A stretch of DNA of 32,000 nt from Erysipelothrix larvae (GTDB taxonomy: Bacteria > Bacillota_I > Bacilli_A > Erysipelotrichales > Erysipelotrichaceae), in the NCBI RefSeq assembly GCF_001545095.1, contig NZ_CP013213.1:2040001-2072000 (forward strand). The letters are read 5' to 3'. Below, one piece after another: positions 1 to 24,619 of the stretch (the first letter of the stretch is position 1; every line of letters begins with the position of its first letter). Made by a program: the position numbers and the translations under genes. The notes below the pieces were generated by a model, which was not told the DNA's origin, did not search any database, and was given only the letters and a program-made list of their open reading frames with translations.

Positions 1-1464
1 TCCTGACTCATTTCCTTGTACGCCGTATGCATCTGAACCCCAAATGAAAATACGACCTTCATCACTTTGTGCGATAATAAAATATATACCGCCAGCTAAG
101 TCTACAATATTATGATCTTTAAGTAAAGACACTTCAACTAATCGATTTTTTGCGGCTCCCGAATTGATTCCTAACTGTCCGCTTCCACCATAACCCGCAG
201 TATAAACCCTTCCATCACTGGACAAAACGATTGTGTTTTCATACAACAATTGCACACCTCTGGTACTGTAGATTGTAAGATCAAGACACTTCTCAATTGC
301 CGCAAGCCCAGAGCTATCGGTTAGGTTATAACAGATATGGTAGGTTCCTGGTACCTTTGAATCATAGTTTGGAGGTGTTGTAATGACGAGGTTGTTTCTT
401 AATGTTTGTTCATCATCAATATTATCACTCACATTCACAAGACTTGATAGAGATAAATTATCAGTTTTCGCCCTTCGTGGTGAATCGCTGATTGGTGTGA
501 TTACTGGTGGTTCTCCATCCGTTACATAAACTTCACGCACCACCTTTTGTGAGAGTCCATCATGGCTTGCGGTATAAGTGATTGTATAGATTCCAACCTT
601 TGATGTGTTCACATTTCCGGATGTGATGACAGGTACCGATTCATCAAACTCATTGAATGCCACAGCCCCTGGATCAGTGAATTTTGTGTTTTGATCGATA
701 TACATGGGCGTATCACCCAATAGTTCAATTCTTAAACTGCTTGGAATGTTTATGCCGGTATCAATGGGTCCATAAACTTGTGCCATGTCTGTCCATAAAA
801 TGGTTGGGTTGCTTGCGCTTGCATTGACACGGACTCCAATTCCGATTTTATTCGCCATTAACCGATCTCGTAATTCTTTTACCGTTAATTTCGCGTCACT
901 AAGGTGTAATTTATACGTATAGCGTTTCGAGTCATACCCGTCTCCTTCACCACTGATTGTTGAAAGAGTATCTTGGTTGACGGTTTTTTTAACCCCATAT
1001 CGAACGCCACCGGGTGTTTGTAATGCTTGTGTATCGTTTTCGTTAAACCCAATCAATGCATGCGTTCCTGTGTTTGATCGGATATCACCATCATCAGTTG
1101 TTGAAGGATATAAAAGCACAATATCTTTTTCATTGGTTTCGTTTTCAAAAGCGAGCTCGATACTTGATTCAATGTCAACACTAAGATCAGATTTGTTTTT
1201 AACGACAAATTCGACCAACAAAATATCATCCTGCACGATTTTTGTGCCAAATCCACTTGCATCATTTGCATACCAGGTTACTGTACCATCTTGGTTAATG
1301 ACACCCACTCTAAATTCTGTGATGTCAATGTTTAGTTTTGATGCACTAACTTGGTATGAACTACGCACGTTGTCACTGAACATGCTTTGTATTGGAGAGA
1401 ACACAGATAAAAGAAACAGGAAAAATGACCCCATCAAAAGCGCACTTATGAGACGTCGTTTCAT
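1..1464 (-). CDS. Large secreted surface/adhesin-like protein; only the N-terminal 488 codons are in the window (ORF runs off at position 1). Absent from the supplied ORF track
   Basis: Hand translation of the minus strand from ATG 1464-1462 stays open to position 1. It starts MKRRLISALLMGSFFLFLLSVFSPIQSMFSDNVRSSYQVSASKLNIDI: a signal peptide followed by an xFSD...LNIDI motif that resembles the TasA/CalY leader of the gene at 2517-3179. Two Ig-like modules of DUF5011/HYR style follow (FTDPGAVAFNEFDESVPVITSGNVNTSKVGIYTITYTASHDGLSQKVVREVYV; NYDSKVPGTYHICYNLTDSSGLAAIEKCLDLTIY). RCC1-type repeats come next (SSDGRVYTAGYGGSGQLG; SDEGRIFIWGSDAYGVQG). The ATG overlaps the sipW stop (ATGA). Confidence 0.8.
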   Translation of the reverse strand, partial: MKRRLISALLMGSFFLFLLSVFSPIQSMFSDNVRSSYQVSASKLNIDITEFRVGVINQDGTVTWYANDASGFGTKIVQDDILLVEFVVKNKSDLSVDIESSIELAFENETNEKDIVLLYPSTTDDGDIRSNTGTHALIGFNENDTQALQTPGGVRYGVKKTVNQDTLSTISGEGDGYDSKRYTYKLHLSDAKLTVKELRDRLMANKIGIGVRVNASASNPTILWTDMAQVYGPIDTGINIPSSLRIELLGDTPMYIDQNTKFTDPGAVAFNEFDESVPVITSGNVNTSKVGIYTITYTASHDGLSQKVVREVYVTDGEPPVITPISDSPRRAKTDNLSLSSLVNVSDNIDDEQTLRNNLVITTPPNYDSKVPGTYHICYNLTDSSGLAAIEKCLDLTIYSTRGVQLLYENTIVLSSDGRVYTAGYGGSGQLGINSGAAKNRLVEVSLLKDHNIVDLAGGIYFIIAQSDEGRIFIWGSDAYGVQGNESG

Positions 1465-1988
1465 GATACTTTTTCCTTGTTATGCTTACGGTATTGTTTA
1501 AACAGATATAAACCAAGCATTATGGACGCAATGGGCAGCAATCCAAAAAGTACAAAGTTTACTGGTGTTTTAACGATTTCAATTAAGAATACTGCAAGTG
1601 TTGTATGAAAAACTGCGCGTCCTAAAACATCGTGAGACGCGATGATTTCTGGATCAATGTCGTTATTGTTATCGCCTTTAGTAATGAACCCCTCTTCGGT
1701 TATATCCACAACACGGTGGAATACCGTCGCATTCACAACGTTACTATGAAATGCAATTGGATCCCCAACATTGAGGCTCGAAGCATCCGTTTTCTTAATG
1801 ATTACTAAGGTATTAATGGGGTAATCTGGAGCCATAGACCCCGTAGTGATGATAAATGGTTTATATCCAAATATAAACACTTCATCTCTATCTTTTCGTG
1901 TTAAAGAAAAGTGGAGTGCAAGCAATAACAAAACAATCGATAATCCAATAAGCAGATTATTGAATAGATTTTTCTTCATCGTCTTCAC
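1461..1988 (-). CDS. sipW: Signal peptidase I, SipW (ER/archaeal) type
   Basis: 175 aa with an N-terminal TM segment. The catalytic-Ser box is TGSMAP, followed by FHRVV and the GDNN box (ITKGDNNNDIDP), and there is a C-terminal TM segment. It sits in an operon with proteins carrying TasA-type leaders. Confidence 0.85.
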   Translation of the reverse strand: MKTMKKNLFNNLLIGLSIVLLLLALHFSLTRKDRDEVFIFGYKPFIITTGSMAPDYPINTLVIIKKTDASSLNVGDPIAFHSNVVNATVFHRVVDITEEGFITKGDNNNDIDPEIIASHDVLGRAVFHTTLAVFLIEIVKTPVNFVLFGLLPIASIMLGLYLFKQYRKHNKEKVS

Positions 1989-2514
1989 TTCTTTCTTTAA
2001 TTAAATATCCACAAAGTATCAAAGAAGCCCCTATGATTATGAGATATTCCCAGTGTTTGGATTGATGTCCCGTATTGGCGAGTTTTTCGCCTTTTCGAAC
2101 AATACCAAAGGTAAAGCGATACGTCTCAGATAAGGTCTGAATGACATTTCCTGTGCCTGGATAGATACTAAAATCCACATTAAAATCATAGGTTTCATTG
2201 ATGTTCAATCGTGTTATTAATTGATTTACCTCAAGTCCTGAGACATCAAGGGCTTCAGAGCTTTGAGGTAACTTTAGTGTCATACTTTGTGTTAATGCAT
2301 TATCATTCATCGATTTCACACTTATGAGATAAATATCCACTACTTCATGTGTTGTATTGTTAAATGAATAAGTAAATGTTGATGACATTCCTGGATGAAC
2401 ATCATCAACACTTATCTCTATGACAGTATTTTTTTGATTGATTAATGCATCATTGATATCAATCACTGAAACAGGTGTTGACAAACATATTAATGTTGCC
2501 AAGAGCCATTTCAT
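1957..2514 (-). CDS. Small secreted protein with a C-terminal LPXTG-like sorting signal (LANTG + hydrophobic segment + charged tail)
   Basis: N-terminal signal-like segment MKWLLATLICLSTPVSV. The C-terminus reads GEKLANTGHQSKHWEYLIIIGASLILCGYLIKERSEDDEEKSIQ. The body is beta-rich and has a PGM/NNT segment (VDDVHPGMSSTFTYSFNNTTHEVVDIYL) reminiscent of the PGD...N.G strand pair in TasA-family proteins. Its 3' end overlaps the sipW start. Confidence 0.6.
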   Translation of the reverse strand: MKWLLATLICLSTPVSVIDINDALINQKNTVIEISVDDVHPGMSSTFTYSFNNTTHEVVDIYLISVKSMNDNALTQSMTLKLPQSSEALDVSGLEVNQLITRLNINETYDFNVDFSIYPGTGNVIQTLSETYRFTFGIVRKGEKLANTGHQSKHWEYLIIIGASLILCGYLIKERSEDDEEKSIQ

Positions 2515-2516
2515 AA

Positions 2517-3179
2517 TTACGGAGTTTTAATACTGGTTGTTTCGATATTTTGCCATCCTGCATTTGTTGGAAGTCTTCCCTCGTTATTATTACGAAGTTG
2601 TAGCGCTTCTGTAATGAATGTAAAATCAATCGCCTTATCTTGTGCATCATTCTTAGCTTCTGGTGCAAATAAAATGGTATATACAACAGAATATTCATCT
2701 GAAGGACCATCTATTTCAACTGAACCACTTATTTTATCGATTTTCGATGTATATGCACCATTAGGATCGAAGGTTAAAAGTGTAAGTCCAGATTGGGTAA
2801 AATCTTTGACTTCCCCTTCATACACTTTAACTACTGGTGTCGCAGGTGAACCATATGTAATTTTTGTCAGTTCACCACTAATGGTAAGTCCATTGCGAAT
2901 CCATGCACTTTTTGTCCCGTAATTTTTCATCGTTGCTTTTACGTAAATGACATCCCCTGGGTTAAAGTTTGTAAGTGTGTTTGATGGCAATAGATTACCA
3001 TCTTTATCATATAGCTGATACTTACCATCTATATCAAGTGTACCAGCAGTGATTTTCGCATCTCCCTTAACTTGGTCACTAAAGTAAGCTAATAGTGAGC
3101 CTGCAAAAACAAAGAGTGCTACAATGCTAATTAGAAGCGCTAGGCTTCTTTTTCCGTTATTCTTTTTATTCTCTTTCAT
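2517..3179 (-). CDS. TasA/CalY (camelysin, peptidase M73) family secreted fibre subunit with a SipW-dependent leader
   Basis: The leader ...LLISIVALFVFAGSLLAYFSDQVKGDAKITAGTLDIDG matches the known TasA/CalY pattern (GGTFAYFSD ... AGTLDL). LTNFNPGDVIYVKATMKNYGTKSAW is the typical PGD...N.G strand pair. A strong RBS (GGGAGGGG) lies upstream of the ATG. Confidence 0.85.
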   Translation of the reverse strand: MKENKKNNGKRSLALLISIVALFVFAGSLLAYFSDQVKGDAKITAGTLDIDGKYQLYDKDGNLLPSNTLTNFNPGDVIYVKATMKNYGTKSAWIRNGLTISGELTKITYGSPATPVVKVYEGEVKDFTQSGLTLLTFDPNGAYTSKIDKISGSVEIDGPSDEYSVVYTILFAPEAKNDAQDKAIDFTFITEALQLRNNNEGRLPTNAGWQNIETTSIKTP

Positions 3180-3486
3180 AAGTCCCCTCCCTTTGGATCT
3201 CTCCTATTATAGGGGAGTGCATCTGAGCCAAACAAGGTAAATTACTTCATGAAATTGAAAAATTATCATGATAACCATAAAAGATTTCAATACTTTAATC
3301 ATAAAGGTACTGTTTAGTAGGGTTATTCGTTATTTTTATCGTAATTTGATATAGATTCTTCCAATATATTTTATTTAAATCATAATTGATATGATACGAT
3401 TCACTGGATTTTCTTTGTAATAATTCACTATTTATTTATGATCGAACTATAATTAAATCATAAATATTGTTGCTACACCTTTTAAT

Positions 3487-3517
3487 AAAAAGGGGTACCG
3501 CTATGGTTACCCCTTTG
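3487..3517 (-). terminator. Rho-independent terminator after the flavoprotein gene
   Basis: The minus-strand RNA reads AAAGGGGTAACCATAGCGGTACCCCTTTTTATT: a GC-rich stem followed by a U-run, directly after the stop at 3526. Confidence 0.65.
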
Positions 3518-3525
3518 ACCTTAAA

Positions 3526-6614: not shown

Positions 6615-8981
6615 TCACCGATTCTTATAATAGATATAAAGTGAATAGTTGCTTATTAAGGCTATGAAACCATAGACAATTAGTGATGTTAAGAAGGTCC
6701 CATTAAATATCGAACCATTCCCCATTAGTAGACTATGCAATGATAGTGCTTCAAAAGATTGTATCCCAATAAGTATCATAAGTAATGGAAGGAGTAACAC
6801 AACCCCTGTCATAATAAATACAATAACTATAGACGTAAATTTAGAGGATATCCATAGAATAATGCTGGTTGAAAATATTGCTCCAGAGAGTCTTAAAACC
6901 CAAACTAGAAGCAGGTATTGCCACAGTTTTAGATCCAGTACCCAAGCTGGTATGTTACTTATTTTGAAATCACTTGGTAAGATACTTTGGAACGTACTTT
7001 GCCATGCATCCATGGTATATATCGAAGAGAATGTAAAAAGGTCAACAAGTGATACTATGATAACTGCTCCGAATGCAATGAGATAAGCAAGCTTAATCTT
7101 ACTTTTGAAAAGGGGTAAATTACCCTTTTTCGTGATGGTAGCAATCCCATCTGGGTCTTGTTCATAATCAAATGCAATAATGGGTGATAACACGAGTACT
7201 AGTAAGACAATGAGTAGTAATGCATTTCTAAATTCTCGTGTTTCTGTATTAATAGAAAACAATGCTTGGTATCCATTTGGATAGACGAGTTCTTCTGAAT
7301 TATTCGTTATGTAATGGTCATAGAATTGATTGAAAACCGCCTTATCAACTGAATGTGATAGGTATTCATTTATAAAGTCGTAATATGCTTCTTCTGTAAT
7401 CGTGTGATCTTTGTATGCTTTTGCGTTTAGACTCAATTGTTTATTTAAGTTATCATAAAAATCATATTGCGTATCAATCCACAATATCTTCTCTTCATTG
7501 AGTTCTCCACCATGTTCACGATAAACCTCAACAAGTTTTTCATCAAGTGTCTTGATATTGAGTCCTTGATATATTCCGATATAGATATTTCCCAAATACA
7601 GACCGATTACGAGTACCACAAGCCATCCCTTTTGCATAATGAAACCTTTGTAAGACTCAAATCCAAACCGTTTCAATCTTGGTACAATAGTCGCATGAAG
7701 TTTATCAAATCTTAAATTGATCGAAAGTTGTGGTTTTAATTGCGCATTGCGCAAAACGATAATGCAGATTGTTCCAATAATGCATATAATAATTCCCACT
7801 CCATATATAAAATTAATTTTTGATAAGGAAAAACCCAATGTCTCAATTATTGAATATGATTGGAATAGGTCTCTTGCTTGAATAAGCGCATAAACATTTA
7901 GATACTTGAAAGGAACAAGCATCATGGTATCTTGAATGGTGAAGTATAACCCTGCACTGAATGAAAAAATCAAGAGGAAAGAGAATACCGCTTGTATACG
8001 ATTTGGAATAACTTGATAGAGTAATCCAAACAAAAATGACAACGCCAGCATGCCTACAAATTGCCCAGACACCATCCACATAAACCATCGACCCAAAGAC
8101 ATATTAAAAGAACTATAAGCCAAAGATGGAAAAGATTGGATTGGTGCAAGCCAGTTGATAGAACTAAAAATGAGTTGATTTGTTAGGATAAGCAAGGCAT
8201 AGATGGATATAAAGACCCCCAACAAACTCATTGTCCCTGCAATAAGTTTTGCGATGGTTGTTCTTGTTCTTCCTTTGTTGGTAATCAATAATAGATCATT
8301 CATCTGTGTTGTATGGTCTATTTCAAAAACAGATAAAAAGATAAATATTCCCACAATTATCAGGATTGGCTCAAGATTTGTACCTAAAAGCACATCAACA
8401 CCCTTATGATTCTCAGATGACAAACTCACTCCCCTTAGGTTCTCAAAATATGCACTTTGTTTACTATAGTAGTCCTTTCTTTGTTCAGAGTAGTTTTTCC
8501 AAAAAGGTTGGTTTTCCATGGCTTCAATGACATTGATCGAATCCTCAACAAACCTTGGAAAGTCTTGAATCATTGTATAATAATCAAAGAGTGCTTGATA
8601 GAGCATTAAAGTCTCATTGATATCAAAATCCCTTACAAATGTTTGATAGTCTTGGATAAAACTTTCTGTCATAAATGCATCATTATAGTATTCTTGACGC
8701 ATACTCTCAGCAATATCAGGAAGTGCTATATAAGTTTCATAATCAATATATAGATTAAGCGTCTCTATTTCATGCGCTATTTCCTGTGTAGCGACATCTA
8801 TTTCCAAAGAATCATAGTTGTCCTTTAATTCCGAATATGCCGAAATATTTACCGAGTCTTTCTCTAAACTTGTCTTTGATATATACATCATTCCTACTGA
8901 AAGAAAGAGCGAAATCAATAAGACTCCCCTAATGAAACGCTGTGACCACAGCTTTTTTAGCTCCTCATATATTAGCATCAT
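6615..8981 (-). CDS. Cassette A: giant ABC-2-type permease, internally duplicated (two TM1 / soluble loop / multi-TM halves)
   Basis: Likely start is MMLIYEELKKLW at 8981. The track ORF extends to 9050, but 8981 gives a 17-nt out-of-frame overlap with the ATPase stop. Each half has one TM, then an acidic/aromatic helical loop (about 170 aa in the first half, about 130 aa in the second), then a cluster of about 5-6 TMs. It pairs with the adjacent ABC ATPase. Confidence 0.8.
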   Translation of the reverse strand: MMLIYEELKKLWSQRFIRGVLLISLFLSVGMMYISKTSLEKDSVNISAYSELKDNYDSLEIDVATQEIAHEIETLNLYIDYETYIALPDIAESMRQEYYNDAFMTESFIQDYQTFVRDFDINETLMLYQALFDYYTMIQDFPRFVEDSINVIEAMENQPFWKNYSEQRKDYYSKQSAYFENLRGVSLSSENHKGVDVLLGTNLEPILIIVGIFIFLSVFEIDHTTQMNDLLLITNKGRTRTTIAKLIAGTMSLLGVFISIYALLILTNQLIFSSINWLAPIQSFPSLAYSSFNMSLGRWFMWMVSGQFVGMLALSFLFGLLYQVIPNRIQAVFSFLLIFSFSAGLYFTIQDTMMLVPFKYLNVYALIQARDLFQSYSIIETLGFSLSKINFIYGVGIIICIIGTICIIVLRNAQLKPQLSINLRFDKLHATIVPRLKRFGFESYKGFIMQKGWLVVLVIGLYLGNIYIGIYQGLNIKTLDEKLVEVYREHGGELNEEKILWIDTQYDFYDNLNKQLSLNAKAYKDHTITEEAYYDFINEYLSHSVDKAVFNQFYDHYITNNSEELVYPNGYQALFSINTETREFRNALLLIVLLVLVLSPIIAFDYEQDPDGIATITKKGNLPLFKSKIKLAYLIAFGAVIIVSLVDLFTFSSIYTMDAWQSTFQSILPSDFKISNIPAWVLDLKLWQYLLLVWVLRLSGAIFSTSIILWISSKFTSIVIVFIMTGVVLLLPLLMILIGIQSFEALSLHSLLMGNGSIFNGTFLTSLIVYGFIALISNYSLYIYYKNR

Positions 8982-9831
8982 AATCCACCATATAGTATAG
9001 ATATGCGTCTTCAAAAGTAGGTGTTTTATCCCCTTGTGCTGTTTCATCAATATAGCGAATCAAATACTTGGATTCGTATTTGTATACTCTTGAAACGCGG
9101 TATTGACTTTGATAATTTGGTAACTCATGGACTTCAATAAACTTTTCTACAACCTTGCCTTTCAATGTCTCTAAAAGTTCAAAGCCTGTACCTTCAAACA
9201 CAATATTCCCTTTATTAAGTAAAATAACTTTGTCTGCAATGGACTCAATATCTTGCATGACATGGGTTGCGATTAATACAATACGATTTTCTGCAATTTC
9301 ACTGATATAATTTCTTAACCGAATCCGTTCAAATGGGTCAAGTCCTGCGGTTGGCTCATCAAGAATGATGATCTTCGGATCACCCAATAAGGATTGCGCA
9401 AACATCAAGCGCTGTCTCATGCCACCTGAATAGGTCTTAATCTTCCGGTTAATACTTTCTTCAAGTCCAACTTGCTTAACCAAGGCATTGACTTGTATTG
9501 TCGCTTCTTGTTTTGAAATTCCCTTTAGGTTCGCCATATAATACATGAAAGCGAGTCCCGAGTAATTACCATAACCTTTTTGATTTTGTGGCATAAGTCC
9601 AATTAAAGAACGATACGATTCCTTTATATCCCAAATATGTTTGTCACCATAAGAAATAACACCTGATGTAGCTTTATCAAGTGTCGCAATGAGCCGAATC
9701 AACGTACTCTTACCAGCACCATTGGGCCCAATTAACCCATATATACCTGGCTTCATGGTAAAAGAAACATCTTTTAGTGCCTGAACTTCTTTAAATTTCT
9801 TTGACACATTTGTTAGATTTAGAAGTTCCAT
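8965..9831 (-). CDS. Cassette A: ABC transporter ATP-binding protein (ABC-2/DrrA-NatA-like)
   Basis: Walker A GPNGAGKST, signature YSGGMRQR, Walker B IIILDEPTAGLD, H-loop ATHV, and a C-terminal extension of about 60 aa. Confidence 0.9.
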   Translation of the reverse strand: MELLNLTNVSKKFKEVQALKDVSFTMKPGIYGLIGPNGAGKSTLIRLIATLDKATSGVISYGDKHIWDIKESYRSLIGLMPQNQKGYGNYSGLAFMYYMANLKGISKQEATIQVNALVKQVGLEESINRKIKTYSGGMRQRLMFAQSLLGDPKIIILDEPTAGLDPFERIRLRNYISEIAENRIVLIATHVMQDIESIADKVILLNKGNIVFEGTGFELLETLKGKVVEKFIEVHELPNYQSQYRVSRVYKYESKYLIRYIDETAQGDKTPTFEDAYLYYMVDYDANI

Positions 9832-9832
9832 A

Positions 9833-10963
9833 TTAGTGACTCAATAAGCCCCAAGGCCAACTTGCGATAATTTCTGCTTCACCAAATGTATTGTTTTGGA
9901 TTGGTATTCTTATAAACTCCATATAATCTTGCCCATATCGATACGCATAGTAATAATCATCAGCTACTATTTGCACAAACCCAACGAGTCTGAGGTCTTC
10001 TTTTTCTGTATATGTCGACAAGATATTTCCTTCAATATCATAAAGGAAAATATCTTCAGGCTCATCAGCTAAATTCCCAATCACAAAGTAATCTTTTTGC
10101 ATGATAACACTGCCTGTTGCTGGTTTTATGTACACTGTTTCTTTGATACTGGAATTATAGAGATTCATTGAATTGGTTGCTTCAACGTAGGTTACATATT
10201 TATCATTCTCCTTTTGATAAGGGGATAGATTTTCATCGATGAGTGATAACTGATTGTCTTCTGTATTCAACGAAATAATTGCATTACTACTAGTCTTGTC
10301 TTCATCAGTGAATGTTGTGGCATTCAAAAATACTTCATTACCGGAGGCCGATATAAGTCGAAGACCTGTTCCGCCTTCTATTTCCTCAAGACTCCAGTCA
10401 CTCATATCAATACGGTTGACTTTAGTGCCGCCATATGTGTAATAAACATAACCCCTATGATAAATCATAGTGAATGATGATTCATCAGGTTTACGTTCAG
10501 ATAGTACCGCAACTTGCCTCCTGTTGTTACCATCCAAATCCATTTGCATTAGTACTTCTGATATGATTCCAGCATCATTAACACTATCACTAACGTAATA
10601 TAAATAGCCATTATAATAGTTTAGTTGATAGTAATCGGTTTCTGAAAATGAAGTACATGATTCTGGTGACTGAAACGAACATTTCGCATCGCCACTAGCG
10701 TCAACAATTGAAAATTGATTAGTCTTTTTATCAACATAACCCAACATGAAAGTATTATTGATTTGCACAAAATCCGTGTTTAAAATTTCAAAGTAAATAC
10801 CCTCTTCACTTTCGGTGGCAGATCTCATCGCTGCAAAAGAACCACTTAATTGGTTTATATTATAATCATAACCCCAAATTGTGGGGTCAATTGGCTTTTC
10901 TTCTGTTTTACTACACCCAGTAAGCAATAAAAATGCAACGAGCACACTTGTTTTTATTTTCAT
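9833..10963 (-). CDS. Cassette A: lipoprotein with DUF5050-like beta-propeller repeats
   Basis: Probable start is MKIKTSVLVAFLLLTGCSK (ATG 10963, RBS AAGGAGAAG; the track ORF starts 12 codons earlier). Lipobox LLTGC. Repeated aromatic blades are present: YYNGYLYYVSD, HRGYVYYTYG, DIFLYDI, DYYYAYRYG. Confidence 0.8.
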   Translation of the reverse strand: MKIKTSVLVAFLLLTGCSKTEEKPIDPTIWGYDYNINQLSGSFAAMRSATESEEGIYFEILNTDFVQINNTFMLGYVDKKTNQFSIVDASGDAKCSFQSPESCTSFSETDYYQLNYYNGYLYYVSDSVNDAGIISEVLMQMDLDGNNRRQVAVLSERKPDESSFTMIYHRGYVYYTYGGTKVNRIDMSDWSLEEIEGGTGLRLISASGNEVFLNATTFTDEDKTSSNAIISLNTEDNQLSLIDENLSPYQKENDKYVTYVEATNSMNLYNSSIKETVYIKPATGSVIMQKDYFVIGNLADEPEDIFLYDIEGNILSTYTEKEDLRLVGFVQIVADDYYYAYRYGQDYMEFIRIPIQNNTFGEAEIIASWPWGLLSH

Positions 10964-11038
10964 AGAGCACTTCTCCTTATCAAAGTATCTAGTTAACAAG
11001 GGACTATAGCTGTTTTTGTTAGTTAGTTTACAGATTAA

Positions 11039-11395
11039 TTAATAACTTTTATCCAGGACTCGCCTGATATTTCCATAAGAAAATTCACCTTTAACACGTG
11101 CGATTTTATAACCAGAAGTGAATGTTATCATCGTATACTCAAAACCGTCCCCTGCACTATTGTCTGATGCTGTACGCTGTAACATAGTTGAGCCCTTATA
11201 TGCCCATGTGGTTTGAATTACTATCAATGCAGTACTTAGACTATTTGACTTTATGGATGCAGTTGCAGTAGTGTCGTTTACTTTGTTAATCAAATATTCG
11301 TATGTATCAGTTGCAGCACTTACACTTTGTGAAAGAAATAGAAAAACTGTTAACGAAAGAATTGTTCCAAGTAATTTCTTTTTAGTTTTGCTCAT
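11039..11395 (-). CDS. Cassette A: small Sec-secreted beta-rich protein of unknown family (about 91 aa mature)
   Basis: MSKTKKKLLGTILSLTVFLFLSQSVSA|ATDTYEY..., with a predicted AXA cleavage site. The mature part is rich in S/T/G/Y and contains no Cys. It is the first gene of the cassette. The track starts one codon earlier, at a TTG. Confidence 0.7.
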   Translation of the reverse strand: MSKTKKKLLGTILSLTVFLFLSQSVSAATDTYEYLINKVNDTTATASIKSNSLSTALIVIQTTWAYKGSTMLQRTASDNSAGDGFEYTMITFTSGYKIARVKGEFSYGNIRRVLDKSY

Positions 11396-11606
11396 CAAAA
11401 TTGTACCCTTATGCTATGGTTCCTAAAACTATTATACTTAATCTTCCAAAAAATATGTAGTACTATCACGCTATTTTTTAAGTGGTTTGTATTTATTTTA
11501 CTTAATTTCAACAGATTTCACATATCAAGGTGAATAATTAGTAATTTTGCTCTATATTAACGGTATAATAATGAACTAAATATACTTCAATAAATAATAT
11601 ATGTTT

Positions 11607-11700
11607 GAATATTAAACTTTATATGGGGTTTTGACAGCCAACACAATTACTATGGGAGAGACAGTTTCTCTCTAAACTCCCTCTTTAAAGTGTTTGGTTT
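11607..11700 (+). mobile_element. Solo, degenerate copy of the left end of the ISL3-like element found at 17494
   Basis: GAATATTAAACTTTATATGGGGTTTTGAC... at 11607 versus GGATATTAAACTTTACTTGGGGTTTTCAC... at 17494. Similarity continues for about 95 bp (roughly 70% by eye) as far as ...CTTTAAAG.GTTTGG. I found no matching right end nearby. Confidence 0.55.
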
Positions 11701-11993
11701 ATCTTATTTTCAAAGGCATAAATGAAAGAAAAAATGCCGTAGCGAGCTGAGATTCAATCAGCATTTACAAATAAAGTGTGGCACTATTTGCGAAAAAAAT
11801 TTTTAATATTACGATTATCTTTGAAGTGACAATCAACAGTTCAATGGATACATTGGTAAACATTTAAAAGCGTTGAATAAAGCATATTCACACATATTCT
11901 GCTACCTATAAATCCTTACTTTCTAAGAATTCAATTTCTCCATAAATCCATTATTCTCGTTTCAATCAATATTGAACAAAATATTTTAAACTG

Positions 11994-12836
11994 TCAGCCT
12001 AACAAATCAATGTACACATCATCAAGGGTTGTCTGGACTTGTCTCTCATGTAAAAGTTTTGAAATAAAGCGAATCTTTAAACCGTTTGATGTAGCCATTG
12101 CGCTCACAAACTTCGCAGAATCATCCTCATTTTTGATTGACTCAAAGGATTCATACGATTCAAAAACATTTGTATCATTAATCAGTGCTTCTTGATTCTT
12201 TATCGACAGAATTTGTCCATCTTTCATCACAATAATCTGGTCTGCAATCATTTCAACATCCGAGATAACATGCGTTGCAAGAATAACAATGCGATCTGTC
12301 GCTACTTCCGCGATAACCTTTCTTAAATTTAACCGTTGAACGGGGTCAAGGCCTGCTGTCGGCTCATCCAATAATAATATCTTGGGATCATTAAGCAGTG
12401 CTTGGGCAATGAGGACCCGCTGCTTCATACCACCTGATAATTGATCCAAAGATTTATGTTTAATCGTTTCTAAATCAGTGCGTTTCATGATGGTGTTTAC
12501 GTTCTCTGAAATCACGTTTCGCTTAATCCCTTTCATTGTACTCATATAAATCAAAAAAGACTCCACTGTGAGATTAGGGATTAGCGATTGTTGTTGTGGC
12601 ATATAGCCAATCATCTTTCGATAGTCATCACCCAATTGATGAATGCTTTTTCCATGATATAAAACGTCCCCTTCATAGCCCAAGGTTGTGCTTAAAATAT
12701 TAATAAGGGTCGATTTCCCAGCACCATTGTGTCCCAATAAAGCATACACACCCTCATCTAACGATAAACTAATCTTATTCAGCGCTATGGTTTCTCCATA
12801 GCGTTTTGTTATGTTTTTAAGCTCAAGAATACTCAT
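11994..12836 (-). CDS. Cassette B: ABC transporter ATP-binding protein, paralog of 8965-9831
   Basis: Walker A GHNGAGKST, signature LSGGMKQR, Walker B ILLLDEPTAGLD, H-loop ATHV. It aligns along its full length with the cassette A ATPase (roughly 40-45% identity by eye). Its start overlaps the permease stop by 4 nt. Confidence 0.9.
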   Translation of the reverse strand: MSILELKNITKRYGETIALNKISLSLDEGVYALLGHNGAGKSTLINILSTTLGYEGDVLYHGKSIHQLGDDYRKMIGYMPQQQSLIPNLTVESFLIYMSTMKGIKRNVISENVNTIMKRTDLETIKHKSLDQLSGGMKQRVLIAQALLNDPKILLLDEPTAGLDPVQRLNLRKVIAEVATDRIVILATHVISDVEMIADQIIVMKDGQILSIKNQEALINDTNVFESYESFESIKNEDDSAKFVSAMATSNGLKIRFISKLLHERQVQTTLDDVYIDLLG

Positions 12837-14905
12837 GATATTAACCCTCTTTTCACATTCATACCAATACCACCAATGACCAAACTCATATAACCTACCG
12901 CAACCACAGGATGTTCTAATATAGCCGTTGTAAGCACCATAAGTGGTGAGTATTCAGGGAAGAGTGTAAACAACCCCATCACCACAATAACAACAAATAT
13001 CATGCCAAATAATGCCTTTAATCCGCTTGTTTGTCGGGCAAGTCGATAACTACTCAAAACAATCAATCCATACACCAAGGCCCTAATTAACAGTGTACAC
13101 ACCATGTACACTGCAAGTGAAACATCCAAGGACAGGTCAGTGTCAAGAATTAGACTCATTGGATAGTTCACAGTAAACAAATTATAGTATTTTAAGATCT
13201 TCGCAATATATATTCCATAAACACCAATACAGAGCACCCCACCAATCCCCAACAACAACTGGAGGTCGATCTTCTTCTTTTGTTTTCGACCTAAAAGAGT
13301 ACTATCAAAAAGTGCATCAATCTTTGATGTCTTCGTTGGATTCACAAACATAAACACAAGACTCATCAGTGCTAAAGAAAGGGTTATAAAATGAATCTGC
13401 ATGCTAAACAAGGACTCTCTACCAAAAAGCTGTTCGTACCCTTGTATATTTGAATAGTAGGCCTCCCCATTTATTAGTACTTGTTCGATTTCATCGCGTA
13501 TCATGACAAGGGTACTGAGGTTGTTTGCTTTCTCGATGAGTTCACTATTATTGGTTTCATCACAATCCATTGTATTATCAATACAGGCATTGAGTTTGTC
13601 GCGCGCTTCTTGAGCGTCAAGGATGCGCACGTTCAAAGCTTCCAAAACATCCGCATCAACAATCCCCAGATACTCAGCACGCATAGCATCCACGTTTGCT
13701 TGTTCTGCATCTTCTAAGATGGTATAGCTCATATAGCGATACCCATTGTATCCAATTAAGATTACACAGATTAAAAATGCTTTATAAAGGATTCCCATTT
13801 GGAAGAATTCTTGAAGGGCAAGTGATTTAAACCTAAAGGAAAGTTTAAGGTCAAACTGCTTAAAGCCAATTCGATTGATATTTCGATACATTCCCCAAGA
13901 TAAAATGCTAACACAAACAGTAAGAACACACAGTGCAACAATTTGCAGTGTAGCAAGTTGAAACCCTAGTCCCAAAACAATCGAAATATTAAAGCTTGGC
14001 ATTGATCCAATAAGATAAGCATACACATTAATATATTTGAGAACACTGTAACCCGATGTAATTGAGATAAAGCTATGCATTAAGTACTGAACTAATGTCA
14101 TCAAAATAAATACAAACAATGCCAGTGCATCATTTCTAAAAATGTGAATAAATATGATTAGAATGGAACCAATGAAAAGCATACTCAGAATACCAAGACT
14201 TGAAATCATAATGAGATAAGACAAACAATTTAGATAATAAGGGAACCGGTTGAATCCTGAAATAAATTGAATCGGAACATATAATGACAACCCCATTAAC
14301 TTAAGTGTACCCACTGTAATAAGAAGCATACCCACTCTAAACAAAACAACACTAACTAATAATGCCAGTATCTTAGAAATATATAGGTGCTTCAACGATG
14401 TATGCGTACTCTCAAAAAGACGCAAAATCTTTATTTGAACATCCTGATAGAAAAGCGCTTGTACACACATAATTACAAAAATAAATGACAGGATTGAAAA
14501 AATAGGAGAGCGCAATACAACCGATGGAACATAGGTATTTTCCACATTCAATTCGAGTGTGTTCAATGTTTGATAATATTGAATTTCCTTCTTAAACCTC
14601 ACTAAATTATCTTTTGAATTAAAAAGCGATGACTGTATTTTCTTCTGATTGTTTTCAATGATTTCGTTATTATATTGCGTAAAGTTTTGAATCGTCTCAA
14701 TTTGATTTTTAAGATATGAACTACTGAGTGCTTCAGTGGAAAGATTCCCTTGAAGATACTGATTCCGTTGTGTTATATAACTTTGGTTTTCATCACTATA
14801 AAATGTACCCACCAAAAAAACCAGGAGTACCAGCATCAGTATCATGACCCCTGGAAGAATACCACGATAAGATTTAAGACGCTTTAGCTCTTGATTTAAC
14901 ATCAT
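12833..14905 (-). CDS. Cassette B: giant internally duplicated ABC-2-type permease, paralog of 6615-8981
   Basis: 690 aa. The plan is MMLNQELKRLKSYRG + TM, a loop of about 95 aa, a TM cluster, then a second TM, a helical acidic loop of about 120 aa and a second TM cluster. The N-terminal motif (ELK+L) and overall plan match cassette A. Confidence 0.8.
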   Translation of the reverse strand: MMLNQELKRLKSYRGILPGVMILMLVLLVFLVGTFYSDENQSYITQRNQYLQGNLSTEALSSSYLKNQIETIQNFTQYNNEIIENNQKKIQSSLFNSKDNLVRFKKEIQYYQTLNTLELNVENTYVPSVVLRSPIFSILSFIFVIMCVQALFYQDVQIKILRLFESTHTSLKHLYISKILALLVSVVLFRVGMLLITVGTLKLMGLSLYVPIQFISGFNRFPYYLNCLSYLIMISSLGILSMLFIGSILIIFIHIFRNDALALFVFILMTLVQYLMHSFISITSGYSVLKYINVYAYLIGSMPSFNISIVLGLGFQLATLQIVALCVLTVCVSILSWGMYRNINRIGFKQFDLKLSFRFKSLALQEFFQMGILYKAFLICVILIGYNGYRYMSYTILEDAEQANVDAMRAEYLGIVDADVLEALNVRILDAQEARDKLNACIDNTMDCDETNNSELIEKANNLSTLVMIRDEIEQVLINGEAYYSNIQGYEQLFGRESLFSMQIHFITLSLALMSLVFMFVNPTKTSKIDALFDSTLLGRKQKKKIDLQLLLGIGGVLCIGVYGIYIAKILKYYNLFTVNYPMSLILDTDLSLDVSLAVYMVCTLLIRALVYGLIVLSSYRLARQTSGLKALFGMIFVVIVVMGLFTLFPEYSPLMVLTTAILEHPVVAVGYMSLVIGGIGMNVKRGLIS

Positions 14906-14910
14906 GAATC

Positions 14911-16035
14911 CTAATTATCAAGTGCGTTGAGATAAGAAGAGGTTGCGATCTTAGTCCACTCACCTGTTTTATAGTTTACTGTATAATATCCCAAGCCATC
15001 ATTCTTGTCATTTGCGACAACAACCAGCGTGTCTTTAAACACACCGATGATTCCAGACACTTCAACCTTACTGCCGTTTAGGTCCAAAGAATTCGAAGGG
15101 ACAAATGACTCACTTGCCTCCACTTCATAGACAAGTGTTCCATCATAATCATACACTTGAAATTTCAACGGAGATTCTGCACTTGTAGCATAAATATACT
15201 GATCATCAATATATTCCATCACTGTATGTTCAAAAGTGGTTCTAACATCACCCGCTTCATTCACAACATGTGCTAATATTTTATCGGCTTGGATTTCATA
15301 ATAAATAAAATTGGAATCATAAGAACTTGCTAAAAAATAGTCTGGAGCCGATATTACATTTTCCAATGAATAATCATCAAAGGAAAAAGCATACAATGTA
15401 CTAACATTCGTTGATTGATTATACATATTAAGATATAAACCATCTTGTGAAGGAACATAACGAAGGAAACGTTGTCCTTCAGGTTCGATAATTTGTGTTT
15501 TCTCCTTCGAATTTAGGTTTACCACAAATACTTCCTGGGTAAAAGTATCAACATAAAATAGGTGACCATAGGTAATAAACATCTTATCAGGGACCGTGTC
15601 AAAAGTATAAACAACTTCTTTATTTAACCCTTCAGAATCAAGGCGATTAAGCATTAAGCCATTTTCCCCTTCAATCGTTCCATAGTATGAAATATAATAG
15701 AGCGACCCACCATAGCATTGAAAGTATTCCCCATCCATGATATCAAAATACTTCTCATACTCTAGCTCATAATCCTGAGAAACACTGACGACTTCATCAT
15801 CGATATAGTTCAAATCCGCTAATTTTAAAGACTCTTGCATCGCATCATCGTACACATAAAGTGTTCCAGAATCAATGTAATAAATTGCGTCATCTGTTGC
15901 TGAAATGCTAATTTTTGAAATATTAGTATTCATCCCAGTAAACATCTGATTTGCAGGAATGCTCTCGTCAATTTTAGTGGATGTTTGCGTACATCCAGCC
16001 AACAATAAAAGTCCAATCAACAAACCTTTCTTCAT
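14911..16035 (-). CDS. Cassette B: lipoprotein with DUF5050-like beta-propeller repeats, paralog of 9833-10963
   Basis: Lipobox LLLAGC. Blade motifs DAIYYIDSGTLYVYD, CYGGSLYYISYYG, YGHLFYVD, NFIYYEI, QYIYATS. The core YxxxYxG(Y/S)LYY(V/I)S ... L(D/M)xxG is shared with the cassette A lipoprotein. Confidence 0.8.
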   Translation of the reverse strand: MKKGLLIGLLLLAGCTQTSTKIDESIPANQMFTGMNTNISKISISATDDAIYYIDSGTLYVYDDAMQESLKLADLNYIDDEVVSVSQDYELEYEKYFDIMDGEYFQCYGGSLYYISYYGTIEGENGLMLNRLDSEGLNKEVVYTFDTVPDKMFITYGHLFYVDTFTQEVFVVNLNSKEKTQIIEPEGQRFLRYVPSQDGLYLNMYNQSTNVSTLYAFSFDDYSLENVISAPDYFLASSYDSNFIYYEIQADKILAHVVNEAGDVRTTFEHTVMEYIDDQYIYATSAESPLKFQVYDYDGTLVYEVEASESFVPSNSLDLNGSKVEVSGIIGVFKDTLVVVANDKNDGLGYYTVNYKTGEWTKIATSSYLNALDN

Positions 16036-17778: not shown

Positions 17779-18249
17779 ATGATAACAGTTTTCTCAAACA
17801 CATTCAATAATAAACAGTTTTCTCAAAAGGAATATTACAAATTTCTCAATTCAATTAATCCAAAAACAATACCTTGTCCGTGCTGTTCAAAAACAGATAC
17901 ACTGATTCGTTATGGATACTATCCGAAAACCATAATTACTGGGCGATTAACCATTGTCGTAGAAATCGCACGTTTCTTTTGTAATCAATGTAAGAGAACT
18001 CATGCAATAATACCAAGTAACTTACTTCCCTATTTTCAACTGTCTGTACCCACAATTGAAATAATATTAACCCATGAACTTGATAGCACGCTTTTAACTG
18101 ATATTGATGAATCAACATATATTCGGATAAAAATACGTTTTAACGATTATGAATCGGTGAGACATTTAAGTTATTTGGAACGATTGAATTACTTCATATT
18201 ATCCACAAAACGGAATATCTATCATTCCGCCATTACTTCACCAACATGA
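17779..18249 (+). CDS. IS-associated Zn-ribbon protein (resembles the DUF6431 proteins found with ISL3-like transposases)
   Basis: 156 aa with two CxxC pairs (CPCCSK ... CNQCKR) and a THAIIPSNLLPYFQ motif. It lies immediately upstream of the transposase inside the IS. RBS AAAGGAG. Confidence 0.6.
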   Translation: MITVFSNTFNNKQFSQKEYYKFLNSINPKTIPCPCCSKTDTLIRYGYYPKTIITGRLTIVVEIARFFCNQCKRTHAIIPSNLLPYFQLSVPTIEIILTHELDSTLLTDIDESTYIRIKIRFNDYESVRHLSYLERLNYFILSTKRNIYHSAITSPT

Positions 18250-18382
18250 GAAAAATAGTTTTAACTCCTCAGATTGAATATAATGAAGATGGTTATTTAA
18301 ATAACAGACAATCATTTTTATATTTAGGAGCAAGATACATAATGAAACCTTATCAAAATAGTCAAAGAGAGGCAGGGTTTCT

Positions 18383-19858
18383 ATGAACGCTAATGCCACT
18401 CTTTTAAGTAACGAAAAAATTCTTGAATTATTTAACTTAGAACACCATCAAGTCCAGAAGATTGATATCAAAGGTCAAAGTGACGCATTGAATGTGTACA
18501 TTACGCTTCAGGTAGAGGAACAAACATGCCCAATTTGTGAAAGCAAAACATCCACAATCAAAGATTATTCTGAAAAGAAGCTTCTCCACTCACTGGTAAC
18601 ACATATACCCTGTTACATTCGTTACCGTGCACGACGTTATAAATGCACAACGTGTAATAAATGCTTTTTTGAACACAATCCATTTGCGTATCGAAATATG
18701 AAGATTACTCAGCTGACCGTATATAATGTCCTGAATGATCTTAAATCGCCACATGAAACGTTTACCACAGTTGCCAATAGATATCGGTTATCTCCCACTA
18801 CAGTATCATCTATTTTCGATTCCCACGTTTCTGTCTCCAGACAAAAACTACCCGCTTATCTGCTTATTGATGAATGTTATGCGTACCACAGTGATCGCAG
18901 TGATTATGTATGCGTTCTTATTGATGCAATGACAAAGAATATCGTAGATATATTACCGTCCCGTAAGAAACAAGACTTAGTCGCGTATTTTAGCCAAATC
19001 CCCCTTGAAGAACGCAAAGGAGTCTTAGGTATTGGAATCGACATGTGGTATAGCTATAGAGTCGTCGCAAAACAATTCCTTCCAAACGCGTTTATCAGTG
19101 TTGATCGTTTTCATGTTTATAGTGATTTAATGAAACGTATCGACTCTATTAGGGTAGACACTATGAAGAAACTAAAACCTCCTAAGAACTGGAAGCAAAC
19201 AGAAGATAAAGTCAAAAGACAAGAATATTATAAGCGTGACCAGCAATACTATCTGCTTAAAAAGTTCAACTGGTTACTCTATAAAAACCCCAAAGCAACA
19301 ACCACAGTTAAAGATAAGAAATACAATATATTTGATCCAAATGTACCGAAACAACGCAATAAGAAATTGGGAAAGTTTCTAAACCTTTACGACATAATAG
19401 ACCTAATTCTTCAAACGAGCAATGGCCTTGAAGATGCATATAACATGAAGTTCTTACTCGATCAATTCTTCAATGAATCAAAAGCTGAGAATGCACACGA
19501 GAATCTGAACACACTCATCAGAGTGATGGCTCAGAGTAGAGTTGCATCAATCGTTGATTTTAGCCGAACTTTAGGAAAGTGGAAAAATGAAATTGTCGCA
19601 ACTTTCAATAAAGTAGAAAAATGCACAAAGGTCACAAATAAGAAAACAGGAGAAACCCATTATGAAGTTTCCATAACACACATAAACAGTGCGTTGATTG
19701 AGAATCGAAATCGCATAATCAAGCAAATAAAAAACAATGCAAGTGGCTATCGTAATTGGGAGCGGTTTAGGAATCGTGTGTTGTATGTGCTTAATGAAGA
19801 CGCAACATATCGAATTAACCCAATAATTAAAACAACCTATGACAAAGGACTCTCTTAA
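18383..19858 (+). CDS. ISL3 family transposase
   Basis: 491 aa. N-terminal Zn finger (CPICESK...CTTCNKC). DDE core segments LIDECYAYH..., GIDMWYSY and SVDRFHV. C-terminal SALIENRNRIIKQIKNNASGYRNWERFRNRVLY is typical of ISL3/IS204/IS1001-type enzymes. Confidence 0.9.
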   Translation: MNANATLLSNEKILELFNLEHHQVQKIDIKGQSDALNVYITLQVEEQTCPICESKTSTIKDYSEKKLLHSLVTHIPCYIRYRARRYKCTTCNKCFFEHNPFAYRNMKITQLTVYNVLNDLKSPHETFTTVANRYRLSPTTVSSIFDSHVSVSRQKLPAYLLIDECYAYHSDRSDYVCVLIDAMTKNIVDILPSRKKQDLVAYFSQIPLEERKGVLGIGIDMWYSYRVVAKQFLPNAFISVDRFHVYSDLMKRIDSIRVDTMKKLKPPKNWKQTEDKVKRQEYYKRDQQYYLLKKFNWLLYKNPKATTTVKDKKYNIFDPNVPKQRNKKLGKFLNLYDIIDLILQTSNGLEDAYNMKFLLDQFFNESKAENAHENLNTLIRVMAQSRVASIVDFSRTLGKWKNEIVATFNKVEKCTKVTNKKTGETHYEVSITHINSALIENRNRIIKQIKNNASGYRNWERFRNRVLYVLNEDATYRINPIIKTTYDKGLS

Positions 19859-19894
19859 GAAATGACTCATTATTGATATACTATAACAAAAAGA

Positions 19895-19933
19895 GGGAAG
19901 CTATAGTCATGTGCGACTACGCTTCCCTTTGGT
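19895..19933 (+). terminator. Terminator after the ISL3 transposase
   Basis: GGGAAGCTATAGTC-ATGTGC-GACTACGCTTCCC is a long stem, followed by TTTGGTCTTT. Confidence 0.55.
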
Positions 19934-20018
19934 CTTTAACAAACTTGTTTGGGGTAACTTACTCCCCAAGTTATTTTATATCATTTTCTGAATTATCCCC
20001 AAGTTATTTCAGACCGCC

Positions 20019-20026
20019 ATAAAATC
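20019..20026. repeat. Target-site duplication (ATAAAATC), right copy
   Basis: See the entry for 17486-17493. Confidence 0.65.
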
Positions 20027-20066
20027 TTCTCAAAATCTTCTCAGAAGACTTTTGGGTACAAAAAAA

Positions 20067-20129
20067 TCCACTAAATAGTGGACAATGGGGTCAACTTAGC
20101 ATAAGCTTGGTTGACTCCTTTTCTTTTGT
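20067..20129. repeat. Left terminal inverted repeat of the IS1634-like element
   Basis: It is the reverse complement of 24391-24453, read directly from the sequence. Confidence 0.85.
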
Positions 20130-20139
20130 TCTTTATAAT
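20111..20139 (+). promoter_or_regulatory. Near-consensus sigma-70-type promoter reading inward from the left IR (TTGACT - 17 nt - TATAAT)
   Basis: TTGACT at 20111-20116, a 17-nt spacer, and TATAAT at 20134-20139. The -35 box lies inside the IR. Confidence 0.45.
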
Positions 20140-20145
20140 GACGGT

Positions 20146-20414
20146 TTCAATTATTCGGACAATTAAGTAATGCTTAGCAATGTATAAATCAAGCGTCATT
20201 AAAACAACTTTCGCTATATGGTTACGCAAATTTTGTGTTACAATTTAATTGTCTTAACTACACTATTGTCGTACCGTTCTCAGTCCGTAGTGAGTTCTTC
20301 GGACCTTCGGATGATTTCTACCATCTATTCTAAACCGATAGAATGGAGGAGATTTCATAAAGCGACCATAGCGTTCATAGTGTCTATCTCTCCTGATAGG
20401 CACTATATTTTTTA
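20146..20414 (+). ncRNA. Candidate IS-internal non-coding transcript of about 265 nt (promoter-to-terminator unit, convergent with the transposase)
   Basis: It is bounded by the promoter above and by an intrinsic terminator at 20379-20414 (AGTGTCTATC-TCTCCT-GATAGGCACT + ATATTTTTTA). The only ORFs here lack an RBS and run through the terminator. The GC-richer segment 20270-20400 contains several short hairpins. Confidence 0.3.
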
Positions 20415-20464
20415 TAGCAATTTCGGTGATTAAGGACACTGCCTCAAAAATGATTTTAACATTG

Positions 20465-21148: not shown

Positions 21149-21266
21149 TGCGCTGTATTTGTTAATCTAAAAGTGGGCCAATTCTCAATTGAAAACTGGT
21201 CCACTATTTTTATAACTTCAGAAGTGTGTGATAATGCTTTTGGAGGTGAAAGAGGTGATATCACAA

Positions 21267-22715: not shown

Positions 22716-22726
22716 GAGAAAAATTA

Positions 22727-23473: not shown

Positions 23474-23540
23474 CAAACGGTAGTGGACCAGTTTTCAATT
23501 GAGATTTGGACCATTATTCAGTTGACAAATACATGCGCCA

Positions 23541-24541: not shown

Positions 24542-24542
24542 A

Positions 24543-24619
<77 letters not shown>

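Follow-up and report, generated by a model that had tools for sequence, protein, structure and literature searches.

A four-gene SipW cassette of Erysipelothrix larvae encodes a TasA-like subunit, a small protein with a sortase-type sorting signal and an Ig-like/RCC1 protein

Results

Gene content and layout of the cassette

The 32,000-nt stretch of Erysipelothrix larvae DNA analyzed here (contig NZ_CP013213.1, positions 2,040,001 to 2,072,000; hereafter the window) begins with four minus-strand genes. In order of transcription, they encode a TasA-like protein of 220 amino acids (aa), a 185-aa protein ending in a sorting signal of the sortase type, a 175-aa SipW-type signal peptidase, and a large protein with Ig-like modules and an RCC1-type propeller that runs past the window edge. 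An initial annotation described these as four tightly packed genes, and an open reading frame (ORF) check returned exactly the same coordinates (3179..2517, 2514..1957, 1988..1461, and 1464..1). The motifs it quoted are all present: AYFSD...AGTLDID in the 220-aa protein, SMFSD...ASKLNIDI in the large protein, and KLANTG followed by LIIIGASLILCGYLI and KERSEDDEEKSIQ in the 185-aa protein. The features of the cassette are listed below by window position.

3180..3525, minus strand: upstream intergenic region, 346 nt, with a strong ribosome-binding site (Shine-Dalgarno; AAAGGGAGGGG) at 3194-3184 ahead of the 220-aa gene and a candidate promoter (TTGAAA-17-GATAAT) at 3290..3262, assigned by consensus matches only
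2517..3179, minus strand: major TasA-like fibre subunit, 220 aa (PF12389, TIGR04088, homologues, and PDB profile matches)
3027..3143, minus strand: SipW-type signal peptide and predicted donor-strand region of the 220-aa subunit, aa 13-51 (...LLAYFSDQVKGDAKITAGTLDID; TIGR04088 and mapping onto TasA)
1957..2514, minus strand: small anchored protein, 185 aa, with a short Sec signal peptide, a predicted beta-sandwich of about 125 aa, and a sorting signal (phmmer, AlphaFold2, and hhalign)
1960..2082, minus strand: sorting signal of the 185-aa protein, aa 145-185, consisting of LANTG, an 8-residue spacer, a hydrophobic helix, and KER with an acidic tail (alignment)
1461..1988, minus strand: SipW-type (archaeal/ER-type) signal peptidase I, 175 aa (TIGR02228)
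1..1464, minus strand: codons 1-488 of the gene for the 763-aa RCC1-propeller subunit/adhesin, which continues past the window edge (ORF; full length from Logan contig L001)
745..1464, minus strand: TasA-like N-domain of the 763-aa protein, with its degenerate leader of the SipW type and its donor-strand segment (QSMFSDNVRSSYQVSASKLNIDI; hhalign)
280..729, minus strand: two Bact_surface_Ig-like modules (PF16403), one at aa 246-314 and one, with approximate bounds, at about aa 316-395
1..240, minus strand: start of the RCC1-type beta-propeller, aa 409-488 inside the window (PF13540, PF00415, and PF25390)

The upstream flavoprotein gene has its terminator at about 3490-3520, and an Rfam scan of the region upstream of the cassette found no element, riboswitches included. 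Spacing within the cassette is minimal. Two nt separate the stop codon of the 220-aa gene from the ATG of the 185-aa gene, the latter overlaps sipW by 32 nt with the GTG start (23 nt with an alternative ATG at 1979), and sipW and the large gene share a 4-nt ATGA. The four-gene cassette is thus confirmed as real. The gene order recurs in divergent loci whose major subunits are 38-49% identical, and the arrangement is not due to chance.

The TasA-like subunit and the SipW-type peptidase

The 220-aa protein matches the Pfam family Peptidase_M73 (PF12389; 25.0 bits against a gathering threshold (GA) of 22.5), with the match restricted to aa 13-89. Its leader passes the cutoff of the SipW-cognate signal model TIGR04088 (20.1 bits against 19, over aa 16-48), and sipW is located two genes downstream, in agreement with the textbook SipW-dependent leader described initially. 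Fifty-four homologues were found, many of them annotated as TasA/CalY family. In an alignment of 28 TasA-like homologues (A1), residues F33, S34, D35, G46, T47, and L48 are invariant. The best PDB matches of the A1 profile are the TasA fibre (8aur) and monomer (5of1), which cover positions 35-195, near full length, at E-values of only 0.01-0.015. The equivalog cutoff for TasA itself (NF046066) is far from reached. In Bacillus subtilis TasA, the donor strand consists of the 11 residues right after the SipW cleavage site and includes the FND motif (PMC9674648). From this position, putative donor segments were assigned as YFSDQVKGDAK in the 220-aa protein and MFSDNVRSSYQ in the large protein. The A1 subfamily also has an invariant NxG[NTS]KSAW[IV]R motif (containing K90), an invariant E155, and a nearly invariant D49 on the GTLDI strand; K90 is placed in a gap in the alignment to B. 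subtilis TasA.

The 175-aa protein scores 77.3 bits against the archaeal-type signal peptidase I model TIGR02228 (cutoff 51.85), and the GSMAP serine, FHRV histidine, and GDNN motifs are invariant in an alignment of SipW proteins (A6). Against the Bacillus SipW equivalog NF046067 it scores 54.7, compared to a cutoff of 190. We assign it to the SipW type and do not regard it as the Bacillus orthologue. An identical protein is encoded on Logan contig L001. The cassette can thus be called a SipW operon with a TasA-like subunit, as first proposed, since the TIGR02228, PF12389, and TIGR04088 cutoffs are all passed. The reported lack of a TapA-like gene also stands: the sole match to TIGR04087 is the 220-aa protein, at 24.3 bits against a cutoff of 80.

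The Ig-like/RCC1 protein

Contig L001 shares 99.4% nucleotide identity with the window over 5.1 kb, and all 488 residues of the large protein encoded in the window are identical there (488/488). The full-length protein (L001:3899-6190) has 763 aa and no C-terminal anchor at its end. It is therefore not the giant adhesin that was initially supposed. The domains ascribed to it are borne out by Pfam matches, with 74.7 bits in two stretches for Bact_surface_Ig-like (PF16403) and further matches to PF13540, PF00415, and PF25390. The protein consists of a TasA-like N-domain (aa 1 to about 240), the Ig-like modules, and a complete RCC1-type propeller, of which the best solved relative is UVR8 (E 3e-41).

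The N-domain was compared with the major subunits by hhalign, using an alignment of five orthologous N-domains drawn from the loci (A3). A3 matched A1 with 95.9% probability (E 5.9e-9) locally and 96.3% globally over 214 columns, leader included. This profile comparison shows homology between the N-domain of the 763-aa protein and the TasA-like major-subunit family, and the leader resemblance noticed initially extends to the whole domain. Orthologues of the 763-aa protein have canonical S[YF]FSD...[AS]G motifs. The window copy (SMFSD...ASKLNIDI) is degenerate and has no direct match to PF12389 or TIGR04088. When the M73 and SipW-signal hidden Markov models were applied to the three non-peptidase proteins, as the initial annotation had advised, the 220-aa protein was positive, while the large protein and the 185-aa protein were negative.

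The 185-aa protein and its sorting signal

Pfam and NCBIfam scans of the 185-aa protein and of every member of its family (hereafter the anchor family) yielded no family model for the protein, and the anchor family could be given an entry of its own. Searching 1.84 billion representative proteins exhaustively with phmmer gave seven real relatives, one near-identical and six divergent (181-196 aa). The divergent relatives end in LPNTG, LPSTG, VPNTG, IPDTG, or IPETG, followed by a spacer with a Trp residue, then a hydrophobic helix and a charged tail. T148, G149, W155, and G162 are invariant in the family, and Pro146 is found in 6/7 members, with Ala in the window copy. Over 12 sequences, P146, T148, and G149 are conserved to 90% or more. 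Identity in the remainder of the protein is only 21-46%, yet the sorting signal keeps its register. In the window copy, LANTG is followed by 15 hydrophobic residues, KER, and then an acidic tail. The LPXTG model TIGR01167 reaches its cutoff in the paralogue on contig L016 (15.9) and in locus L009 (16.6). The initial reading of LANTG, transmembrane helix, and charged tail as a sortase-type signal is partly supported, by homologues that carry [LIV]PxTG at the same position. Because this motif lies in register across the relatives and the L016 paralogue has a canonical LPSTG, the conservation pattern indicates that the sorting signal is a real, selected feature of the anchor family.

By inspection, the N-terminus of the window copy is a short signal peptide (MKWLLATLICLSTPVSV), and its orthologues have canonical signal peptides ending in AxA-like sites. 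A SipW-type leader or FSD donor segment is absent from 12/12 members of the anchor family, all of which have ordinary signal peptides. The donor segment is present in the two SipW substrates of the cassette. All relatives with readable context are encoded between a tasA-like gene and sipW (L001, L002-4, L012, L013, L014, L015, and L016).

AlphaFold2 (AF2) with the family alignment gave a model of the 185-aa protein with a predicted local distance difference test (pLDDT) score of 78, a beta-sandwich at residues 16-140, and a transmembrane helix at residues 154-184. The single-sequence model was poor (pLDDT 51), with TasA at rank 1 in its Foldseek search. For the alignment-based model, TasA (5of2) had the top Foldseek TM-score (0.44/0.43, probability 1.00). 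PDB profile searches with the anchor family placed TasA in the top 2-3 (E 0.3-0.8), with the PGD...N and NxxQ...F.F motifs in the right order. For the merged anchor-family profile, the top PDB match (E 0.034) was 9p4u_A, an extracellular region annotated as "ABC-type transport system, permease protein", and TasA ranked below it; this is probably a chance beta-rich similarity.

Related cassettes in other lineages

Contig L016, from the same sample as L001, carries a second complete cassette at 10001-14084 (215, 200, 174, and 773 aa; about 46-49% identical), and its anchor has LPDTG and then the canonical LPSTG signal. In E. larvae, a 49%-identical paralogue of the 220-aa protein (AOC36_01665) is encoded on the same contig as the identical 220-aa protein. 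The two paralogous cassettes may produce two antigenically or functionally distinct fibres.

A genome scan with alignment A1 identified four loci in Saccharibacteria, which belong to the candidate phyla radiation (CPR) (L007, L009, L010, and L011), and one in a metagenome-assembled genome labelled Streptosporangiales (L008). These loci encode a TasA-like subunit, an anchored protein of 228-253 aa, and a large protein that has an FFSD or YFTD leader and ends in Ig-like and RCC1 domains. In the anchored proteins, a signal peptide precedes motifs of the PG[FD] type and GNxAQN, and VPNTGE, LPPTGE, LPPSGE, or LPPTAE is followed by a transmembrane helix and a basic tail. They are homologous to the 185-aa family by hhalign (97.7%, E 2.1e-12, 140 columns).

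SipW is present in the four Saccharibacteria loci, the ones in which it was looked for. In 4/4 of them it is fused to a C-terminal sortase domain that is joined via two extra transmembrane helices (L007:11603-12820, L009:11591-12799, L010:11488-12678, and L011:11590-12687). The fused domains score 51-79 bits with PF04203 (GA 26.6), and the L009 domain scores 69.6 bits with TIGR01076. The fusion suggests that processing by SipW and recognition of the small protein by a sortase are parts of one pathway, for which it is the strongest indirect evidence. As independent genomic support for coupled processing, the fusions also suggest that the design is old or widely transferred. Of the papers that a literature search returned, none appears from its title and abstract to concern a SipW-sortase fusion, and within the set of papers searched none mentions RCC1 together with SipW.

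The L014 and L017 cassettes are each followed by an Mga-type regulator. L014 also encodes a 1683-aa Collagen_bind/SpaA-domain protein ending in LPNLG.

Discussion

How TasA-type fibres start, end, and attach to the cell is unsettled, and the role of TapA is debated. LPXTG anchors for such fibres have so far been proposed from gene neighbourhoods and AlphaFold 3 (AF3) models only. The present cassette is a compact four-gene system, found twice in one cultivable Erysipelothrix species, in which the shaft, head, base, and processing enzyme would be one gene each. Because each proposed role falls to a single gene, the questions of anchoring and polarity are directly testable.

As the most likely explanation, held with moderate confidence, we propose that the cassette builds a TasA-type surface fibre by donor-strand exchange, with the RCC1 protein at the distal end and the 185-aa protein as a proximal, sortase-anchored acceptor. 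The proposal builds on the gene order and its conservation, the family assignments of three of the four proteins, the conserved sorting signal, and the homology to the cassettes with SipW-sortase fusions. Reports from other organisms also speak for it: Erysipelothrix rhusiopathiae has sortase A and 21 LPXTG proteins (PMC9637936), C. perfringens encodes an LPXTG protein of the BsaB-like kind beside srtB (PMC11580942), and for AbpX-type fibres AF3 predicts complementation of an LPXTG anchor by donor strand (10.64898/2026.01.04.697558). SipW would remove the leaders of the 220-aa and 763-aa proteins and expose their N-terminal strands (YFSDQVKGDAK and MFSDNVRSSYQ), and each exposed strand would enter the beta-sandwich of the next subunit. 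Through its TasA-like N-domain, the 763-aa protein could be incorporated into the fibre, with its two Ig-like modules and seven-bladed RCC1 propeller serving as a binding head. The 185-aa protein has an ordinary signal peptide and a predicted small beta-sandwich. It has no donor segment and probably serves as a purely accepting terminator at the cell-proximal end, into which the last donor strand would insert. A sortase encoded elsewhere would then process the C-terminal [L/I/V]PxTG, transmembrane helix, and charged tail to form a covalent link to peptidoglycan; in the minimum case, the transmembrane helix would keep the protein in the membrane. Growth of the fibre would be ended by the anchor. 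Fibre formation, co-polymerisation, the polarity of adhesin and anchor, and the sortase step are what we infer from these features. The 185-aa protein would be a covalent replacement for TapA with the opposite strand logic, as TapA donates a strand.

Several observations weigh against this reading. Neither the 32-kb window nor the 10-kb flanks of the Erysipelotrichaceae-type loci contain a sortase gene. The LANTG of the window copy is non-canonical and has no TIGR01167 match at E<1, and the tail is net acidic after KER. The full His/Cys/Arg set of a sortase is retained only in L009; the fused domains of L007, L010, and L011 lack the catalytic Cys and may be pseudo-sortases. BsaA oligomers of Clostridium perfringens strain 13 behaved as membrane-anchored, not wall-anchored (PMC11580942). 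The gene order is also not universal, and homologous operons without the anchored protein exist, which partly bears out one of the outcomes that the initial annotation had named as refuting its idea. The anchor is absent from L017:6001-10385 and L018, which have a TasA-like gene, sipW, and a shorter RCC1 gene, and from L005:385-1677, which has only the TasA-like gene and sipW. Locus L014 (4094-12944) has the TasA-like/anchor/SipW trio without an RCC1 gene. With regard to the fold of the 185-aa protein, no Foldseek match had E<1e-3, and CUB, PliG, and PPC sandwiches were placed above TasA by E-value. Comparison of the anchor family with the TasA-like family by hhalign gave 5-17% probability, mainly from the C-terminal GNxxQ..f.f motif. 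Column shuffles reached the observed hhalign score in 3/150 cases, but the null was noisy (hydrophobic outliers up to 135; reversed profile 33, untrimmed) and was not relied on. Together with the models described above, these comparisons weakly indicate a TasA-like fold, and we lean towards it.

Some of these observations also fit a different role for the 185-aa protein, that of a membrane-tethered assembly factor (a nucleator or chaperone like TapA or the transmembrane-anchored PamC/PamD) in which LANTG has decayed and the C-terminal helix holds the protein. The missed LPXTG model and acidic tail, the lack of a nearby sortase, and the membrane-anchored BsaA oligomers are compatible with such a factor. 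The fused sortase domains that have lost Cys (3/4) may merely bind the motif, and transmembrane-anchored chaperones have been proposed for CPR Pam pili. We consider this role unlikely, as [LIV]PxTG in register over 12 divergent homologues is hard to explain without sortase recognition. Furthermore, the paralogue in the same organism has a canonical LPSTG at the TIGR01167 cutoff, and L009 retains a complete His/Cys/Arg sortase fused to SipW.

The RCC1 protein could instead be an independent SipW-dependent secreted or surface protein, with an N-domain that serves export and processing only and lies outside the fibre. BsaC, the vWA protein of the bsa operon, is secreted as a monomer (PMC11580942) and would be a precedent. 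The absence of an RCC1 gene from L014 and the degenerate leader of the window copy (MFSD, KLNIDI), which escapes TIGR04088 and PF12389, are consistent with this explanation. However, homology to the major subunit spans the whole N-domain of about 215 columns and goes beyond the leader (96%), and the donor motif S[YF]FSD is conserved in orthologues. The architecture of leader, Ig-like, and RCC1 domains also stands beside the same partners in Bacillota, Saccharibacteria, and L008. An independent RCC1 protein therefore seems improbable to us. The Pfam name Peptidase_M73 might suggest that the 220-aa protein is instead a metalloprotease of the camelysin type or is associated with spores, within a loose set of secreted proteins. 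This is very improbable, given that structural work now identifies the M73 family as fibre subunits of the TasA type (PMC9674648), that a metal-binding protease motif was not seen, and that the tight, translationally coupled cassette is conserved across phyla.

A sortase-polymerised pilus was also considered and was rejected, because the four proteins have no SpaA/Cna_B Pfam match and no pilin motif, and the locus has no class C sortase.

A wider form of the donor-strand proposal is possible but tentative, and we hold it with some doubt. The cassettes could represent a distinct class of monoderm fibre, distributed from Bacillota to Saccharibacteria, that combines TasA-type exchange, tip-first assembly from the RCC1 subunit, and an acceptor-only LPXTG subunit that ends growth and ties the fibre covalently to the wall, with SipW and sortase as one coupled machine (fused in CPR). 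If true, the two pilus paradigms, donor-strand and sortase, would be genuinely combined in such a fibre.

Comparison with known systems

The B. subtilis tapA-sipW-tasA operon (PDB 8AUR, 5OF1/2) also has a SipW-type peptidase in an operon with a TasA-family subunit. The two subunits share the leader/donor motif [YF]F[SN]D...GTLD and the PGD and NxxQ core motifs, and both systems have an accessory protein implicated at the cell-proximal end of the fibre. The cassette differs from that of B. subtilis in lacking TapA; its accessory protein, a predicted small beta-sandwich, starts with an ordinary signal peptide, ends in a sortase-type signal, and lacks a donor segment. It also has a second SipW substrate, with Ig-like and RCC1 domains, and its major subunit falls into a separate subfamily, in which the motif NxGxKSAWIR is invariant.

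BsaA/TasA-family genes are often located in operons with LPxTG proteins and sortases (Kivimaki et al., PMC11580942). The C. perfringens sipW-bsaA-bsaB-bsaC operon with srtB (Obana 2020, PMC7395162; PMC11580942) resembles the cassette in having SipW, a major TasA-like polymer, and a large SipW-dependent protein with an adhesive-type domain. Like the cassette, it also has a second small protein, which in most C. perfringens strains is a BsaB-like LPXTG protein encoded next to srtB and is speculated to anchor BsaA through sortase (PMC11580942). However, the BsaB-like protein is a recognisable TasA paralogue, whereas the 185-aa family is not recognisable by sequence. BsaC has vWA and no reported TasA-like N-domain, unlike the Ig-like/RCC1 protein. 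The sortase gene adjoins bsa but not the E. larvae cassette. BsaA subunits are locked by an Asn-Lys isopeptide (Asn-Glu-Lys type).

A preprint on AbpX describes TasA-superfamily loci that encode signal peptidase I (SPase I) together with minor subunits, tip proteins, and anchors of the LPXTG or SLH kind (10.64898/2026.01.04.697558). In it, AF3 predicts donor-strand complementation between an LPXTG anchor of Clostridium amylolyticum and an AbpX-type fibre subunit. These AbpX/Tafi-type loci and the present cassette have in common a dedicated signal peptidase, a major subunit of the donor-strand-complementation type, a tip protein, and an envelope anchor. They differ in that AbpX forms a cluster separate from TasA and the SPase I of its loci has ten transmembrane helices; neither an RCC1 tip protein nor a SipW-sortase fusion is described there. 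A preprint on the CPR "Pam pilus", considered owing to the Saccharibacteria homologues, describes an unrelated system.

The initial annotation knew of no description of this arrangement. That claim does not hold, because LPXTG anchors, tip proteins, and sortases in TasA-superfamily loci have already been reported bioinformatically (PMC11580942; 10.64898/2026.01.04.697558). For related systems, the design is so far a predicted one, set out in two preprints (2024-2026). The idea of a hybrid between TasA fibres and sortase-anchored structures keeps its footing in the SipW operon, the TasA-like N-domain, and the sorting signal, and loses its novelty.

Two classes of pili offer further parallels. 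Sortase pili of the SpaA/SpaB/SpaC type carry an adhesin at the tip of the shaft and a small subunit at its base; the LPXTG signal of this basal subunit stops assembly and attaches the pilus to peptidoglycan. Their shafts are joined covalently by a class C sortase via pilin-motif lysines, whereas non-covalent donor-strand exchange would be expected here. Chaperone-usher pili (FimH/PapG tip, PapH terminator) likewise use donor-strand exchange, a specialised tip adhesin, and a base terminator, but their proteins are unrelated and the cassette has no chaperone or usher. PapH has a donor strand and a non-exchangeable groove, unlike the terminator proposed here, which would be an acceptor without a donor strand.

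Other features of the window

At 6615-16035, on the minus strand, the window has two tandem paralogous modules, each with an ATP-binding cassette (ABC) ATPase (8965-9831 and 11994-12836). These modules also encode large proteins without a Pfam or NCBIfam match (811, 388, 690, and 374 aa), along with small ORFs of 119 and 134 aa. A mobile-element cluster occupies 17779-24076 and is directly adjoined by tRNA genes. The insertion sequence (IS) features and the tRNA array are as follows.

18383-19858: DUF6431 ORF and ISL3 transposase
20465-21094: truncated DDE_Tnp_1 transposase
21228-23473: IS21-type istA/istB pair
23495-24076: IS4-family fragment
24469-25346, minus strand: nine-gene tRNA array immediately adjoining the IS cluster (Rfam RF00005, 60-71 bits)

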